In this document: piece by piece, positions 192 to 6,001 of the stretch
How positions within the stretch are numbered: the first letter of the stretch is position 1
Layout: each line of letters opens with the position of its first letter
Virus record (IMG/VR): IMGVR_UViG_2585427725_000002
Span: 1 to 6,001 of that record
Source: a virus
Taxonomy: Duplodnaviria > Heunggongvirae > Uroviricota > Caudoviricetes
DNA: 6,001 bases
Reading direction: 5' to 3' (one strand)
Notes under the pieces: model-generated
Seen by the model: the letters and a program-made list of their open reading frames with translations, nothing else
What the model was told of the DNA's origin: nothing
The model's database searches: none
Made by a program: the position numbers and the translations under genes

Positions 192-611
192 ATGGACAGA
201 TACTTCTATTCACAAAAAGAAAATGGTTTTTTTACCGATTTAAATAAAGCACCTTCAGATGCTGTTGAGATAACCACGGATGAATGGCTATCACTACTGG
301 ATGGTCAGGATAATGGCATGAAAATAGTCAGCAATCAGGAGGGATATCCGGTTTTGACAGAGCAACCACCTTTATCAAAAGAAAACCTTATTGCATTGGC
401 AGAGTTGAAAAAAGGAAAACTTATTAATGAAGCCAACGAGCACATGAACAGCAGGCAATGGCCTGGTAAAGCGGCTATTGGTCGTCTGAAAGGTGAGGAA
501 CTGGCGCAATATAATTTGTGGCTGGATTATCTGGACGCACTGGAACTGGTTGATTCCTCCAGTGCGCCAGATATTGAATGGCCTACGCCTCCGGCAGTTC
601 AGGCCAGATGA
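192..611 (+). CDS. Tail fibre assembly protein (Tfa/gpG/U-like chaperone), alternative copy
   Basis: 139-aa ORF with ATG at 192. The C-terminus (LDYLDALELVDSSSAPDIEWPTPP) carries the conserved Tfa C-terminal motif and parallels the C-terminus of the minus-strand tfa. It is convergent with that gene and overlaps it at 583..611. Confidence 0.8.
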   Translation: MDRYFYSQKENGFFTDLNKAPSDAVEITTDEWLSLLDGQDNGMKIVSNQEGYPVLTEQPPLSKENLIALAELKKGKLINEANEHMNSRQWPGKAAIGRLKGEELAQYNLWLDYLDALELVDSSSAPDIEWPTPPAVQAR

Positions 612-1185
612 CATCCGGCGCGGTGCTGGTATCTGTTGCCGTCACCGCGTCAATGTAATCCAGCACAGCGTTAAGTCGGGTGGTTTCTGCCTGCGTCAGC
701 TTCCGTCCGGCCTGTAGTTTCAGTTGAATCAGACTAATGGAAGCCATTGCTGCATCAATAAGTGACTGGCGCAGTGCTTCTGCCGCGTCTACTGCGGCAT
801 TATGCTGTGCCTCAGTATCTGTCACCCATTTCTCACCATCCCATTTATCGTATGGCGTTAACGGGGCGATAGTGGTTGTATTATCAGGGTAATCACCCGG
901 AGCTGTGATTTCTTTTGATTCTCCTGTTTCGGTGCTAAAGACGATTTCACCGCGATGGTCTGGCACATATTCCCATGAGTTAAAATCTGCAGATCGGCAG
1001 ATTGCATAACCAGTTTTGTATGAGCCAGGAGCATCTAAACAGGAACATGCCGGAATGCCGACACCCACAGCAAGATATTCAGTTGATGTGAAAATATATT
1101 CCCGTGTTTCACCATCATAGTTATAAACCGTAATATTTCCTGCCTGGGTGGCGATAAATTCGTTATTTAATACAGCGTAATCCAT
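583..1185 (-). CDS. Tail fibre assembly protein (Tfa/gpG/U-like chaperone)
   Basis: 200-aa ORF with ATG at 1185..1183. The C-terminus (LDYIDAVTATDTSTAPDVIWPELPEA) is the characteristic Tfa motif. Its start overlaps the fibre stop by 1 nt (TAATG), indicating translational coupling. Confidence 0.85.
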   Translation of the reverse strand: MDYAVLNNEFIATQAGNITVYNYDGETREYIFTSTEYLAVGVGIPACSCLDAPGSYKTGYAICRSADFNSWEYVPDHRGEIVFSTETGESKEITAPGDYPDNTTTIAPLTPYDKWDGEKWVTDTEAQHNAAVDAAEALRQSLIDAAMASISLIQLKLQAGRKLTQAETTRLNAVLDYIDAVTATDTSTAPDVIWPELPEA

Positions 1186-2000
1186 TATGCAGCCCTCACG
1201 ATATAATTAAAGGCAATGTTTCGAGGACGGTTTTCGTTTGCAGTTGGAACAACTCTGGAAGCATCAAATGTTACTCGCTTTGCATAACCACCTTTAATTG
1301 AATCAGATGAAGCATCTCCGATGACGCTGGTTGTAAAAACGCCAGAATCAGAAGGATAGGTATTAAACCTGACATCTACTAATGCACCAATTATATTTCG
1401 AATGGCATCGCCCTGTGATGCAAGCAAGCTACGGTTAGTATCAATTCCTCTTCCGTCATCCCAGCCACGAATAAACTCACCACGTAAATCAGGTAATTTA
1501 TTTGTCGGGTAAGCCTTTGCCAGTTCCGGGTATTCTTCAGCAGAAAAAGCCGCACCATTGCATTTCAGCCAGCCTGTTGGCGGAGTGGCTGAAGGCCACG
1601 GAACAGGGACACCAACAGGTAATGCAGAGCCTTCTCCCAAACCAAGGTTTTCGAGAGCCGTTGGTACCGTGCCGTCCGATTTGATATCACCAAACGGATT
1701 ATTGCGGCTCAGGTATTCAACAGCAAACCCCGATCCCAGCAATTCAACAAAACCGGGCAGATCACCATTATCAAGCACATCCCGTTGCGTTTTATCACTT
1801 ACAAACTGGGCCAGAGCTGCAGCAATAAAGCTGGCCTGCCGAATAACCTTATTGACTTGCGCACTGGAGGCTTTCCCTGCTGTAAATCCGGATAAAAGCG
1901 CGGGCAACGCTTCCCATTCCTCCTGCGATATAACATTGGCATTTCGATCCGTTGCAAACGCTTTAAAGTCATTTTTCGCCATCAGAGTAATACTCCCCAT
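1185..2000 (-). CDS. Short tail fibre protein with a constant N-terminus and an invertible C-terminal part
   Basis: 271-aa ORF. The C-terminal part has a tail-collar-like stretch ([22 protein letters not shown]...[13 protein letters not shown]), it lies immediately upstream of tfa, and the crossover site falls in frame at codons A115..E123. The true start may instead be Met7 (ATG at 1982..1980), which gives a TGATG coupling with the upstream gene. Confidence 0.85.
1632..1657. other. Site-specific inversion crossover site (hix/gix/cix/pix-like) for a serine invertase
   Basis: The 26-bp sequence TTCTCCCAAACCAAGGTTTTCGAGAG has the imperfect dyad AAACC-NN-GGTTT with a central AA, closely resembling hixL (TTCTTGAAAACCAAGGTTTTTGATAA, recalled from memory). 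It lies inside the fibre ORF, where it encodes LENLGLGE. Confidence 0.6.
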
Positions 2001-2662
2001 GCTCCTACATCAAAACCACTGATGAATTCGTTATCCATATCAAAACCAAAAAATTTTGAGCCTTCCGATGGGGTTTCCACCGAAGGTGTTTCAATGCCAC
2101 CCGCCCATACCCCGGCAGCTTTTACTGTGAGATACCCCTGTTTAATTGCCGCAATTAACTCACGCGATACATCTGAAATATCAGTATCAGGAAAGACCCA
2201 GACCGATATCGTCATGTCCTGGTTATCGACTATCTGCATTCGCAGCCCGGATCCTGCTGTTGCAGAGTCAAGAATTGCCGGAAGCGAATCATTCCGTCCA
2301 TCCCAGTTATTAATCGCAATCTTCGCTTTAAGAATGACACGATAAGTTTCATCGCTGAGGTACATGTATCCGGAATCAGGATCGTATGGTCCCTGCCATA
2401 CCCCCTGATCATATCCAAGCCCGTCGGTATCCCAGCTGAAATAGACACCTGAGATAGGCTGGCTGACAACACGGCTACGTCCGATCCACAATCCCAGAAT
2501 GTCAAGTTGCACACCAACCGCAGAGTCAATATCAAATGCAGTAATCAGCCCTCTGGTGGCAGCCGCAACATCAATAAGCGGCCGGGTCATCAGATCAACA
2601 TGCGCAAGAAATTTAGGTTTGGTGGCGTGGTAGTTCGTGATTAGTTCGGTGTATTTGCTCAT
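1982..2662 (-). CDS. Phage tail/baseplate protein I-like (P2 gpI / Mu gp48 family, DUF2313-type)
   Basis: 226-aa ORF placed between the baseplate J-like gene and the fibre gene, as in P2 (J-I-H) and Mu (gp47-gp48-S). Its start overlaps the J stop as ATGA. The assignment is by synteny and size; family membership is recalled, not searched. Confidence 0.65.
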
Positions 2663-3858
2663 GACTCCACCGTTATAACGATATTTTCCGGGGTACAGGA
2701 CGCAGATTCGTTGTATCTGATATCAATGTTTGATGACGACAAAGCCCCCGGGGATTTCCCAATCGTCAGTTCCTGAATATCGTAATAGCGTGCATTCCCG
2801 CCACTCACCACGCCAAGATTCGCCGGTGAGTAAATGCGACTTAAAAGGACCGAATCACCAATCGTCAAACTATTGATATAGTCGGAAATAGCCTGCTGGA
2901 TCTGCTGCCCTATCTGTGAGGTATAACCCGTAAAAACTTTTAATTTAATCCGGGCATAAACAGGCACATCACTGGAACGCGAGAATTTGATTACATGGGG
3001 ATTGCCGTATTTATCCGGAACCGTAACGGATGTTGTACCGTGAGTGGCTGTCCCCTGGCCTTTATTCCCTCTGATAGCCTGAGCAATATCCGTCACATCA
3101 CCGCCATCCACAATTACAGCAACAGAGTGTGGCGGTAACCCGTTACCGTCCTCCGAACCAGTATCGTTTTCATAGAGTTTGTGGCGGGTTACACCGGGAA
3201 CATTAGAAACAGCACCATCCAGTGCTTCAAATGGGGTTATTGATGGCAACGCAACACTTTGCGACTGGCGGATACGTAACTCAGCATCAGTTTCTGCCGG
3301 AGAGCCAACAGTAGCCGCAGCAGGATTAGTTACCGAAACCCAGCCACGGGTTGGCGTATTAATTTCAGTGATAGTTCCAGCCAGCGCCGCCACTGCACCA
3401 CTGACGGAACATGTTGCGGTCGCCATCACTGTACCATCCACGCCGACCACCACTGAAGCAGGCAAACGCCATATCACATTATTACTGTCTTTCACGCTGC
3501 CATTAATGATGGTTGTTCCGGCAGTTCCTGTAAGAAGCAAATCAACCGTAGAGTTCGTCGCGCCTTTACGTGAAATACCATTTATTTTCACGTTACTGGT
3601 CAGTGCAGCCCCATAGCCGGTTGCCGGTGAAAAACAGTTGTAGACAGTTATCGCCATATTATTGGCATCATGAATCGCCAGCGCCATCAGAGCCACCATC
3701 TGGCCGTCTTTGCTGTCCGGTTCGAGGTAGGCATCACTGCCATAAATCTGCTGAAAATAGCTAATCAGGGTGCTGAGTATCGTCTGATAATCAGGCGCAC
3801 TGATCCCCTCCGCGGTTACCTTTGCAGATAAACCGAGAGAATCAAGGTTCAGAGCCAT
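2659..3858 (-). CDS. Baseplate J-like protein (P2 gpJ / Mu gp47 / T4 gp6 family)
   Basis: 399-aa ORF with a GGAGG ribosome-binding site about 5 nt upstream of the ATG. Its size and position between the W-like and I-like genes fit the family. Start overlaps the upstream stop (TAATG). Confidence 0.8.
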   Translation of the reverse strand: MALNLDSLGLSAKVTAEGISAPDYQTILSTLISYFQQIYGSDAYLEPDSKDGQMVALMALAIHDANNMAITVYNCFSPATGYGAALTSNVKINGISRKGATNSTVDLLLTGTAGTTIINGSVKDSNNVIWRLPASVVVGVDGTVMATATCSVSGAVAALAGTITEINTPTRGWVSVTNPAAATVGSPAETDAELRIRQSQSVALPSITPFEALDGAVSNVPGVTRHKLYENDTGSEDGNGLPPHSVAVIVDGGDVTDIAQAIRGNKGQGTATHGTTSVTVPDKYGNPHVIKFSRSSDVPVYARIKLKVFTGYTSQIGQQIQQAISDYINSLTIGDSVLLSRIYSPANLGVVSGGNARYYDIQELTIGKSPGALSSSNIDIRYNESASCTPENIVITVES

Positions 3859-4211
3859 TACGCCTCCGATGTAACAGTCGTTATTCCATAGAGAGTGTCG
3901 ATTTCAGCGGAAAACATGACACGTCGGGTCGTGGTATCCACCGTCGTATTGAAAGAGAGGATTGATTTAACGCCCTGCGTTTCGAGGATGCGCTTACGGA
4001 TCGCCAGGTTGTAAGTTTCTGGTTTTTGCCTGCCCAGCACGGACTGGATCCACGGTGTTCCCTCTGTGGTATCAAGAAACCATTGCCCATACCACAATTC
4101 GAATCGCGTTTTCACAGCCTGCGCTACGGCCTCAGGCGAGTTAATCAGCCAGGTGTCATCACCGCTGCCAAAGGTGTAATCGCCATCGGCGTCTTCACGT
4201 CTGTATCGCAT
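3858..4211 (-). CDS. Baseplate wedge protein, gpW/gp25-like (Mu gp46-like)
   Basis: 117-aa ORF located between the spike V-like and J-like genes, with the size typical of gpW/gp25. It is translationally coupled on both sides. Assignment rests mainly on synteny. Confidence 0.6.
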   Translation of the reverse strand: MRYRREDADGDYTFGSGDDTWLINSPEAVAQAVKTRFELWYGQWFLDTTEGTPWIQSVLGRQKPETYNLAIRKRILETQGVKSILSFNTTVDTTTRRVMFSAEIDTLYGITTVTSEA

Positions 4212-4963
4212 CAGTTTACCCCGTCGGTACTGCTTCCACCACGCTGAACACCACCATGAGTGTGTGTATCATCGATTGGCTTGCCATTAGCCTTCACGCT
4301 CCCCAAAAACTCAACAGCACCAGTGATTTTTGAAGCCACACCAGAAACCACAGACCCCACCATGCCCCCCATCCAGGTTAACAGGCCATGAATGGTTACT
4401 TTCTCAGAAAAATCAGCCAGAGGGGCAACCACATCAAGACCACCTGGAGCGACAATTTTAATTTTCCTGGTATCAGGATTAAGCTCAAAATAGGTGCTGC
4501 CGTCATCACTACGCAACTGTGTGGCACTGGTATTAATACCGCTAATCTTCCTTGCCTGCGACTGGGGACCGACAATACAAAACGCATCCGATAAATCATG
4601 CATTCTGTCATCGACCGACTCCTGTATCCCGCCACTCTGCCACCAGAAATCAATACAACGATCGGCAAAAATCACCAAACATTCATCACCGGCTTTAACT
4701 GGGAACGTTAGCGTACATCCTCCGCCGCGCGGGAATACCACTGGCACATCCACCAGCAATGGGTAATTTTTGGTAATGCGGTTGCCGTCATTATCCTTTT
4801 CAACCGAACGGATAGCAGGCTGCACAACTGCCGTCACCGCATCAGGATCGAATGACTGAATAATGCCAGGCAAGGCGACACGGATCTGGTTCTTTGTTGT
4901 TTCCCGTTCAGATTTGAATGTTTCGGCAAGGTCGCCGCTGCGGGTCTGGTCAGATACTGCCAT
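4211..4963 (-). CDS. Baseplate assembly protein V / central spike (P2 gpV, Mu gp45-like)
   Basis: 250-aa ORF with a GGAG ribosome-binding site 8 nt upstream of the ATG. It contains the OB-fold-like motif FPVKAGDECLVIFADRCIDFWW, comparable to the GDEvLVxF motif of Phage_base_V proteins, and a His-rich C-terminal tip (DDTHTHGG). Confidence 0.75.
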   Translation of the reverse strand: MAVSDQTRSGDLAETFKSERETTKNQIRVALPGIIQSFDPDAVTAVVQPAIRSVEKDNDGNRITKNYPLLVDVPVVFPRGGGCTLTFPVKAGDECLVIFADRCIDFWWQSGGIQESVDDRMHDLSDAFCIVGPQSQARKISGINTSATQLRSDDGSTYFELNPDTRKIKIVAPGGLDVVAPLADFSEKVTIHGLLTWMGGMVGSVVSGVASKITGAVEFLGSVKANGKPIDDTHTHGGVQRGGSSTDGVN

Positions 4964-4980
4964 TTAGTAGGCTCCAGAAA

Positions 4981-5006
4981 GCAAAAAACCCGCCGAAGCG
5001 GGTTTG
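4981..5006 (-). terminator. Rho-independent terminator (minus-strand reading)
   Basis: The minus-strand transcript reads AAACCCGC-UUCG-GCGGGUUU followed by UUUGC: an 8-bp GC-rich stem with a UUCG tetraloop and a U-tract. It lies between the truncated upstream ORF stop (5023) and the V-gene ribosome-binding site. Confidence 0.6.
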
Positions 5007-5022
5007 ATAACGTTAATTTTAT

Positions 5023-5144
5023 TCATGAAACTCTAGCAGACTTTAGCTGTTCCCAGCGCTCAAAATAGAGTTCAGCAGCCTCGATTGCATCCTGTCCCAT
5101 CTCTTTCGAAACAGTCACATTCGTCAGATCATAGTCAGCTTCAT
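5023..5144 (-). pseudogene. 3' fragment of an unidentified gene interrupted by the IS2 insertion
   Basis: One minus-strand frame stays open from the IS2 junction (5144) to TGA at 5025..5023, about 39 codons ending ...ELYFERWEQLKSARVS. The other two frames stop immediately. The upstream part would lie beyond the IS2. Confidence 0.35.
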
Positions 5145-5185
5145 TGGATTTGCCCCTATATTTCCAGACATCTGTTATCACTTAA
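5145..5185. repeat. IS2 right terminal inverted repeat (IRR, about 41 bp)
   Basis: The terminal sequence matches the remembered IS2 IRR. The exact inner boundary is approximate. Confidence 0.7.
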
Positions 5186-6001
5186 CCCATTACAAGCCCG
5201 CTGCCGCAGATATTCCCGTGGCGAGCGATAACCCAGCGCACTATGCGGATGCCATTCGTTATAATGCTCGAACGCCTCTGCAAGGTTCTTTGCTGCCGTT
5301 AACCCGTCTGGTTTGGGCATGATACTGATGTAGTCACGCTTTATCGTTTTCACGAAGCTCTCTGCTATTCCGTTACTCTCCGGACTCCGCACCGCCGTGT
5401 TCTTCGGTTCAAGTCCCAACATCCGGGCGAACTGGCGTGTTTCATTAGCCCGGTAGCATGAACCATTATCCGTCAGCCACTCCACTGGAGACGACGGAAG
5501 ATCGTTGCCGAAGCGGCGTTCCACCGCTCCCAGCATGACGTCCTGTACTGTTTCACTGTTGAAGCCGCCGGTAGTGACCGCCCAGTGCAGTGCCTCACGA
5601 TCACAGCAGTCCAGCGCGAACGTGACACGCAGTCTCTCTCCGTTATCACAGCAGAACTCGAACCCGTCAGAGCACCATCGCTGATTGCTTTCTTTCACGG
5701 CCACTCTGCCTGTATGTGCCCGTTTCGATGGCGGTACAGCAGGTTTTCGCTCAAGCAACAGCGCATTCTGGCGCATGATCCGGTAAACACGTTTGGCATT
5801 GATCGCAGGCATACCATCAAGTTCTGCCTGTCTGCGAAGCAGCGCCCATACCCGACGATAACCATACGTGGGCAGCTCTCCGATAACATGGTGTATACGG
5901 AGAAGCACATCCGTATCATCAGTGTGACGACTGCGGCGGCCATCCATCCAGTCATCGGTTCGTCTGAGAATGACGTGCAACTGCGCACGCGACACCCGGA
6001 G
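5156..6001 (-). CDS. insD: IS2 transposase OrfB (InsD), N-terminus off-window
   Basis: The translation ([26 protein letters not shown]...WCSDGFEF...[10 protein letters not shown]...[14 protein letters not shown]...RCLEI, stop TAG at 5158..5156) shows the IS3-family DDE motif and matches IS2 InsD as I remember it. The track's leading M at 5995 is a GTG, an in-frame Val; the real start lies upstream, off-window. Confidence 0.9.

Follow-up and report, generated by a model that had tools for sequence, protein, structure and literature searches.

Lambdoid morons are units of promoter, gene and terminator located between late genes, e.g. HK97 gp15 and lambda lom and bor (PMC3851460, PMC2629481). 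In P22 the ant moron (the immI region) is positioned between gene 16 and the tailspike gene 9, just 5' of the latter (PMC2629481), and the P22 late operon is dependent on gp23, a protein of the Q type (PMC2629481, PMC8022706); Q lets the polymerase pass terminators (PMC3851460, PMC8022706). Moreover, intrinsic terminators are predicted inside the late operons of phages L and P22 and are common in such operons. Their roles are given as "not known", and partial termination or the stopping of spurious, non-antiterminated transcription has been proposed (PMC8022706).

We report on the junction between the baseplate hub and spike genes in a 6,001-nt window (the whole stretch of DNA that was analysed; positions are numbered along this window, and the sequence is read on its minus strand). 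As judged by comparison with its relatives, the locus is a well-documented further example of the known kind, i.e. a predicted intra-operon terminator at the edge of a moron hotspot in a Q-dependent late operon; a description of a hub-spike hotspot was not found in the literature searched. As for the P22 ant moron, a variable accessory region is present in the late operon immediately 5' of a host-recognition or tail-tip gene, the late polymerase must traverse this region to reach the downstream structural gene, and one of the cargo types is a homologue of the P22 antirepressor. The two differ in that the tail here is contractile with spike, wedge and fibre genes downstream while P22 has a single tailspike, in their cargo families, and in that one terminator marks the same boundary here whichever of the about 70 cargo types is present, and also at empty sites. 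With the lambdoid morons the locus shares an insert at a point where a relative (Aaphi23) has adjacent or overlapping genes, a lower GC content, a promoter-like element, a 3' terminator and, to judge from its relatives, a Q-dependent operon; here, however, the terminator seems to be owned by the site, and many inserts have no space for a promoter of their own. The phage L and P22 elements are likewise predicted intrinsic terminators in an operon with one antiterminated promoter, and the same two roles are candidates for both, whereas the present element is represented at >200 loci, with compensatory changes and a link to a cargo hotspot.

Among other known systems, the P2-like and P4-like defence hotspots (bioRxiv 10.1101/2021.01.21.427644) have in common with this locus a fixed position, conserved flanks and many alternative defence or toxin systems; they differ in that the present site belongs to another phage group and is the hub-spike junction inside the tail module. 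The IS2 fusion promoters (ampC, Jaurin and Normark, PMC9330008) and the junction promoter Pjunc (PMC3299598) also have an IS2 right end with an outward -35 facing the adjacent genes, but here there is no usable -10 at 17 bp and a strong predicted terminator precedes the first gene. The Nus-dependent mEpimmI and the Tai defence were considered as well and have no relevance to this locus. A conserved terminator that marks a hotspot at >200 loci should be useful for prophage annotation and for defence-gene mining, and the system is suited to testing the role of intra-operon terminators, a question that is open in the literature (PMC8022706).

The spike gene junction and its hairpin

On the minus strand the order of features at the junction is the end of IS2 orfB, the IS2 right inverted repeat (IRR), the 3' remnant of a cargo gene, the hairpin, GGAG and the spike ATG. 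The IS2 part comprises the 3' 857 nt of the element (orfB and the right end; 5145..6001), is co-directional with the phage late genes and extends past the window. Its 41-bp IRR reads TTAAGTGATAACAGATGTCTGGAAATATAGGGGCAAATCCA (5185..5145) and is followed by 122 nt of cargo gene, i.e. the last 39 codons and the stop (5023..5144, with TGA at 5025..5023). The hairpin, a putative intrinsic terminator according to scan, fold and conservation, comprises a stem, a cUUCGg tetraloop and six T (4983..5005). Specifically, the 5' arm is AAACCCGC (5005..4998), the loop is TTCG (4997..4994), the 3' arm is GCGGGTTT (4993..4986) and the T-run is located at 4988..4983, which as RNA corresponds to AAACCCGC-UUCG-GCGGGUUU plus the U-run (5005..4983). 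The Shine-Dalgarno sequence of the spike gene, GGAG (4975..4972), is positioned 8 nt before the ATG (4963..4961), and both GGAG and its spacing are conserved across the relatives.

The spike gene (4211..4963) encodes a baseplate central spike of 250 aa, as indicated by the PF18352 N-terminal domain (Pfam, E=4e-44) and a GpV apex motif; its relatives in RefSeq are annotated "membrane-puncturing spike protein". It is followed, also on the minus strand, by genes for a 117-aa wedge protein (3858..4211), a 399-aa baseplate J protein (2659..3858), a 226-aa DUF2612 protein (1982..2662), a 271-aa fibre (1185..2000) and a 200-aa fibre assembly protein (583..1185). According to the ORF list all of these ORFs downstream of the spike start (583..4211) are intact and co-directional, and synteny and annotation of these tail genes agree in BH100N, KOr019, 606R2 and SEN34.

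The sequence-only reading of this DNA had placed a UUCG terminator just upstream of the spike gene, and its coordinates and description were correct. In the terminator scan the hairpin (8 pairs, 5 GC, loop 4) is the top-ranked site in the window; the folding energy is -12.3 kcal/mol, and the six T at 4988..4983 are followed by GCTTTCT. The site is reported for the minus strand only, the opposite strand giving just TTTGAT. The window scan alone, with 7 terminator-like sites vs 5.6 expected, is insufficient to exclude a chance origin, which is excluded because 212 of 226 related loci have the element and the stem shows covariation (see below). The fold of the whole region 4950..5050 is unremarkable (z=-0.8), and it is the local hairpin alone that matters and not this wider fold. 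By its sequence features and its conservation the hairpin is a genuine element of the intrinsic-terminator type, at which transcription would be expected to terminate.

The same reading had noted that a promoter does not fit into the space from the hairpin to the spike gene, and we agree: the distance from stem to ATG is 22 nt and, since the ribosome-binding site is inside that stretch, no space for a promoter is left. In P2, the genes V, W, J, I, H and G constitute an operon with its own Ogr-dependent promoter, and the order spike-W-J-I-fibre seen here is similar. It is nevertheless extremely improbable that the V-like spike gene heads a late operon of its own with an activator-dependent promoter immediately upstream. 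The stem is only 15-22 nt from the ATG, the relatives share no homology 5' of the hairpin, so that no conserved promoter can exist there, and the relatives have Q and not Ogr-type regulators.

Insertion of IS2 into a cargo gene

The 857-nt IS2 part shows 98-100% identity to IS2 copies annotated in phage records and in thousands of E. coli genomes. It has OrfB upstream and an exact 41-bp IRR ending 5'-...CA, and independent IS2 copies are 100% identical to it exactly up to position 5145; the IS2 IRR has been described as 41 bp with the sequence 5'-TGG...TTAA-3' on the bottom strand (PMC3299598). Prophages in 19 complete E. coli genomes match the window from 5142 to 4600 (543 bp) at 100% identity, and IS2 is absent from the corresponding position in all 19. 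The exact IS2/cargo junction was not found among complete RefSeq E. coli genomes, GTDB species representatives, IMG/VR or GenBank phages. The closest uninterrupted relative is the prophage of E. coli BH100N, located between yfhL and yfhH, which is 100% identical over the 543 bp and about 98% identical over 3.5 kb of shared tail genes. Its gene order is sheath, tube, chaperone, tape measure, baseplate protein, plug and hub (354 aa), followed by ORFs of 110, 257 and 131 aa, the hairpin and the spike gene, which corresponds to a gap of ~1.6 kb between hub and spike. The cargo remnant in the window is 100% identical to the intact 131-aa ORF (BH100N L001 8725-9120), and IS2 is inserted in this ORF between codons R91 and N92.

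The 131-aa protein and its counterparts of ~130 aa share the invariant residues R25, S29, R30, Y32, Y33, H54, R91, D95 and Y96. Single-sequence searches with the cargo pair of the window against Pfam, PADLOC and PHROGs gave no function, and a family profile (A3) was needed to detect HEPN; searched against PDB it matched the HEPN proteins 9xbd_A (E=6.5e-9), 9xbc_A (E=5.7e-8) and 2hsb_A (E=3.6e-6). With respect to the HEPN Rx4-6H motif, the family shows an invariant R91-x3-D95-Y96 and not R...H, and R-N-x-S-D-Y is also present in the PDB match. The split point is thus inside this conserved R-x3-DY motif of an HEPN-type accessory gene, and IS2 did not strike a regulatory region of the tail genes. 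What the insertion is predicted to have inactivated is thus the HEPN gene of a two-gene cargo cassette and not the control of the tail operon.

The presence of IS2 had led the sequence-only reading to the idea that the operon might be silent or dependent on IS2, possibly through a hybrid promoter driven from the IS2 end. The outward-facing -35 in the IS2 right end that this idea builds on is real (PMC3219604), and together with the mandatory 17-bp spacer of the junction promoter it is documented (PMC3299598, PMC3219604). From the published 17-bp rule we deduce that the -35 of the circle-junction promoter in the IRR would be the hexamer TGGAAA at 5166..5161. At this spacing the flank has TGAAGC (5143..5138) as -10, which matches at 2 of 6 positions and is without A2 and T6. 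The hybrids scored -1.1 (ATGAAG, 16 bp), 0.7 (TGAAGC, 17 bp) and 1.5 bits (GAAGCT, 18 bp), compared to 7.6 bits for the natural TGGAAA-17-TAGACT, so the proposed hybrid promoter did not stand up. Promoter prediction on the minus strand across the junction likewise gave nothing above chance: in 4950..5260, a stretch that includes the sequence from the IS2 end to the spike gene, no promoter was present in the consensus scan or above the shuffled expectation, and the best candidate scored 7.5, which is below the median shuffled maximum of 7.6. The terminator scan gave no terminator-like sites on the minus strand in the 857-nt IS2 part, and a transcript starting from an IS2 or a cassette promoter would meet the terminator ~140 nt further on.

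On ordinary operons IS2 is classically polar, this polarity being Rho-dependent, and an antiterminated polymerase is expected to ignore IS polarity. That the spike-fibre genes have been cut off, and are either silent or driven by an IS2-end hybrid promoter, would be in keeping with polarity, with IS2 physically separating the spike gene from the late genes upstream, with the outward -35 in the IRR, and with the IS2 fusion promoters known for ampC, acrEF and neoR (PMC9330008). We consider this quite improbable, given the TGAAGC at 17 bp and the low hybrid scores, the terminator that any IS2-end transcript would meet, the expected disregard of an antiterminated polymerase for IS polarity and the downstream ORFs, which are all intact. 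The lack of a usable hybrid -10, the conservation of the arrangement as a ground state (see below) and the location of IS2 in a cargo gene taken together make a silent or IS2-dependent operon unlikely.

Conservation of the hairpin and variable cargo at the hub-spike junction

Spike-relative loci (226 in total) were collected in three IMG/VR scans, using E. coli, Klebsiella and Hafnia spike seeds, and from GenBank phages; the loci are related to one another and are not independent samples, with spike identity down to ~68%. A GC-core hairpin followed by at least five T in 8 was scored as canonical. The GC hairpin and the T-run are present in 212 of the 226 loci, in most of them 15-22 nt before the spike ATG, while two loci have a slightly degraded form, seven a hairpin without T-run, one (Yersinia YP3) a weaker and different hairpin, and four none; the T-run is thus found in 212 of the 221 hairpin-bearing loci. 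The stem occurs as CCCGCC/GGCGGG, CCCAC/GTGGG, CCCGTC/GACGGG, CCTCGC/GCGAGG, CCCAGC/GCTGGG, GGCCGCT/AGTGGCC, CCCTC/GAGGG, GCCGC/GCGGC and others, and the loops vary freely (ACCC, ACTT, GGAT, ATTC, TTCG, CTCTGA and others). In an alignment of 61 distinct hairpins double-sided (compensatory) changes were detected in 7 of 9 stem pairs (23 cells), with none of 500 shuffles equalling the observed values and with far lower values in slid registers; the sequences in the set are related and were picked with a hairpin finder, so that the percentage paired is inflated. These compensatory changes argue that the structure of the hairpin is under selection.

The conserved, stable stem, the free loop and the position at a gene boundary would also fit a processing signal or 3'-end protector, where the hairpin mainly shields the upstream (cargo or hub) message from 3' exonucleases. 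This is very unlikely to be its main role: it is the T-run, of no use to a stabiliser, that is conserved best, T being the base in all three invariant columns of the alignment (in a set pre-selected for the T-run), and it accompanies the hairpin in 212/221 loci.

Homology to more distant relatives (E. coli prophages, vB_EcoM-606R2, SEN34 and Klebsiella Mulock) starts exactly at the hairpin, and the sequence 5' of it is unrelated. The terminator is absent in L055, L060, L155, L156 and Aaphi23. A terminator followed by no promoter is the conserved ground state of the lineage, including the isolated phages vB_EcoM-606R2 and SEN34, and neither results from the IS2 insertion nor is an oddity linked to it. 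This removes a false alarm: a strong promoterless terminator beside an essential phage gene would be a normal antiterminator-driven design and not the mark of a dead or IS-dependent operon.

The distance from the hub gene to the hairpin varies between 58 and 2,203 nt and is occupied by unrelated cargo in about 70 sequence clusters. Most of the cargo ORFs point in the direction of the late genes (144 plus, 19 minus). Among the cargo sampled are a protein of the PD-Lambda-1 defence type (E=4e-84), a toxin of the Fic/Doc type, an antirepressor like that of P22 and a membrane protein with DUF2335, and a diversifying two-gene cassette (~250 aa plus a ~130-aa HEPN protein), of the same kind as the one in the window, is present in >15 clusters. 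The GC content is 0.42-0.44 for the cargo (0.37 for the promoter gap) vs 0.49-0.54 for the flanking tail backbone. In 8 divergent cassettes of the family to which the cassette in the window belongs, a promoter-like TTGAC[GT]-17/18-TAnAAT was detected, the -10 of which ends 22-33 nt before the first ORF; singly these are weak (p=0.005-0.36). In BH100N the corresponding element is TTGACG-17-CACAAT, 30 nt before the 257-aa ORF, a site that falls outside the window. In Aaphi23 the hub and spike genes overlap, and neither cargo nor hairpin is present. The region thus has the features of a moron, i.e. extra DNA between genes that are adjacent in relatives, a 3' terminator and a deviant base composition.

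Cargo-free loci keep the hairpin: the distance from hub stop to spike ATG is 64 nt in L226, L228 and L230 and 127 nt in L162. The hairpin is also kept where the 110-aa ORF is the sole cargo (L126, L157 and L160 types), and where inserts abut the upstream gene with no space for a promoter of their own, as many do. The terminator therefore seems to belong to the site and not to each insert. Its retention at cargo-free sites and before promoterless cargo implies that insulation from cargo promoters is not the sole selective reason for it. From these comparisons the hairpin appears as the fixed right-hand edge, in the late-operon backbone, of a hotspot for exchange of accessory genes (moron, defence and toxin-antitoxin). 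The clusters without a canonical terminator nearly all have a minus-strand ORF beside the spike gene that is transcribed away from it (4 of the 8 clusters with such an ORF are without the terminator, vs 1 of the 62 others; Fisher p=4e-4, in a test that ignores phylogeny), which is suggestive of a tie between terminator loss and adjacent cargo transcribed away from the spike.

We tentatively raise the possibility that the terminator came first, as a "landing pad" of the backbone, that by insulating the essential tail genes from unmodified transcription it allowed accessory and defence genes to be captured and exchanged again and again at this position, and that its loss was confined to sites whose neighbouring cargo is read in the direction away from the spike; on balance this remains doubtful. 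If such an order of events were general, it might be possible to predict accessory-gene hotspots of prophages from the conserved terminators inside their Q-dependent late operons. A homology breakpoint that in many lineages coincides with the 5' base of the hairpin, and a conserved stem with a variable loop next to about 70 cargo types, could also suggest a cassette-exchange site, in which a recombinase recognises the hairpin in the manner of integron attC and drives the replacement of cargo. That the hairpin acts in this way is highly improbable: the site has no linked recombinase, the left edge of the cargo has no matching counterpart of it, and selection for a terminator combined with homologous recombination in the conserved flanking genes explains the pattern.

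No family was matched in an Rfam scan that covered the window together with five related loci. At the cargo-free locus L162 a promoter-like TGTGATAAT is present together with the hairpin. The idea that the two constitute a small-RNA gene is without support.

Late operon layout and probable read-through by Q-modified polymerase

The Q gene and the start of the late operon were read in the relatives, as the corresponding region of this prophage lies outside the window. In SEN34 a Q protein is encoded (PF03589, E=1e-50), and the holin gene is preceded by two strong terminators (38689-38712 and 38868-38891), after which comes one co-directional cluster running from the lysis genes via terminase, head and tail to fibre assembly. 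Inside this late cluster the pre-spike hairpin is the only canonical terminator on the same strand. The Q of the BH100N prophage is another one (PF06530, E=5e-42), with 45% identity to the Q proteins of Stx phages; here, too, a terminator precedes the holin gene (L086 10205-10184), and all late genes form a single cluster on one strand. Four isolated myophages, 606R2, 611R5, 689R2 and 683R1, have Q of the BH100N type, at 89% identity, and the same pre-spike hairpin.

Since phages that form virions have the terminator with no promoter space after it, late transcription must pass the hairpin. The conserved hairpin, the Q genes and the co-directional late cluster in the relatives make read-through by Q-modified polymerase the best explanation. 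The earlier suggestion that transcription of the spike, baseplate and fibre genes comes from upstream, past the terminator, is thereby well supported by comparison, with Q and a single late cluster in the relatives. Q-dependent read-through of downstream terminators is known for the Q proteins of lambda, 82, 21 and 933W, and Q-modified complexes are classically highly resistant to terminators.

On the whole we regard it as probable that the hairpin is a conserved terminator in a Q-antiterminated late operon, that it is read through by Q-modified polymerase and that it borders the hotspot. The phage would belong to a group of temperate myophages that are SEN34/Brunovirus-like, vB_EcoM-606R2-like and Klebsiella Mulock-like, in which the hairpin would act as a Rho-independent terminator within a single late operon, with the baseplate-hub genes before it and the spike gene after it. 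During lytic growth the Q-loaded polymerase, coming from a late promoter far upstream, would read through the hairpin. Polymerase without Q, started from a cassette promoter, from IS2 promoters or spuriously, would stop there, so that the tail genes would be off in the lysogen; silence in the lysogen would then be the designed state. The most likely role of the terminator, as suggested by its conservation and position, is accordingly that it insulates the tail genes from unmodified transcription.

A variant in which the hairpin is an attenuator, overridden only partially even by the Q-polymerase and giving less mRNA for the low-copy baseplate and fibre proteins downstream than for the head, sheath and tube proteins encoded before it, is unlikely. 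Apart from the resistance of Q-modified complexes, the genes for the low-copy tape measure, hub and plug proteins are encoded upstream, so the split does not track copy number, and several lineages are without the terminator (L055, L060, L155, L156 and Aaphi23). Attenuation would be in line with the retention of the terminator even at cargo-free sites, with a role of this kind proposed for the intra-operon terminators of phage L (PMC8022706), and with the P22 ant region, which is thought to affect the level of tailspike (PMC2629481).

Returning to read-through by Q-modified polymerase as the probable course in this genome, we infer that the polymerase would also cross the 1.3-kb IS2, which would not be polar for it, and that the spike, wedge and fibre genes would be expressed. 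A loose precedent for late transcription across an IS may be seen in the functional phage SfIV, where an IS1 transposase gene is located between Q and the lysis genes (PMC3851460).

The HEPN cassette and other cargo of the hub-spike interval

In the window, IS2 interrupts a 131-aa HEPN-type cargo gene between codons R91 and N92 (window 5023..5144; 7965-9120, together with its upstream partner, in L001, the uninterrupted prophage of E. coli BH100N), and the insertion point lies within the R-x3-D-Y motif, which is invariant in this HEPN family. Upstream of the HEPN gene a partner protein of 257 aa is encoded (phrog_17809), in which no domain was recognised. Strongly diverged pairs of the same kind, i.e. 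approximately 250 aa plus a HEPN protein of approximately 130 aa, occupy this hotspot in more than 15 cargo clusters; the arrangement resembles a toxin-antitoxin or defence cassette undergoing diversification, and it is absent from PADLOC. The IS2 insertion also generates a chimeric ORF of 52 aa that runs from a GTG start within the IS2 right end into the HEPN 3' remnant (window 5023..5181, minus strand) and is probably meaningless.

Other cargo includes a 409-aa protein in L102, L123 and related loci, located approximately 400-1650 nt past the hub gene, which carries a T5orf172/MUG113 domain and has PD-Lambda-1, a defence system, as a match (E=4e-84). The hotspot further carries genes for Fic/Doc, with a small ORF upstream, for an antirepressor of the P22 type and for a DUF2335 membrane protein. 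In most loci the hub gene is followed at its 3' side by an ORF of approximately 105-110 aa (phrog_3443; 7537-7869 in L001, with equivalents elsewhere), which some loci lack; in phage Mulock it is annotated as a putative membrane protein. Its identity between lineages is 54-70% compared to >95% for the corresponding hub genes, and this ORF may be an accessory gene in its own right, one that evolves rapidly.

The pre-spike terminator with and without cargo

The terminator is retained in sites without cargo, where it lies downstream of the hub stop codon and ahead of the spike ATG, as seen in L226, L228 and L230 (2434-2500) and in L162 (2374-2500). The 127-nt spacer of L162 has an extended -10-like element, TGTGATAAT, and a small stem-loop, both 5' of the terminator; judged from this layout the spacer would be sRNA-like, and it gave no match in Rfam.

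A conserved motif, CCTGAYATTTGWWCAGTA, directly adjoins the terminator, within the 20 nt 5' of the hairpin, in loci from E. coli, Klebsiella and Hafnia phages (L046, L047, L051, L061, L089, L092, L098, L109, L168, L169, L171, L172, L195, L207 and L243). The cargo of these loci has an ORF of approximately 120 aa on the minus strand, and the motif may represent the promoter or operator region of this divergent gene. A few lineages lack the canonical terminator (L055, L060, L155 and L156; L107, L209, L234-L236, L239 and L240), and in nearly all of these a minus-strand ORF adjoins the spike gene. In the L107 type the T-run is lost while the hairpin is kept (CCCCTCAC-TAA-GTGAGGG).

The distal fibre segment

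The segment encoding the distal fibre and fibre assembly (window ~431..1211) is an invertible host-range segment; it is reversed in the related loci L006, L007 and L013 and has the same orientation in BH100N, where the pinE invertase gene adjoins it. An ORF on the plus strand was also predicted in this region (window 192..611). Identity between the window and its relatives falls at ~1630, within the fibre gene.
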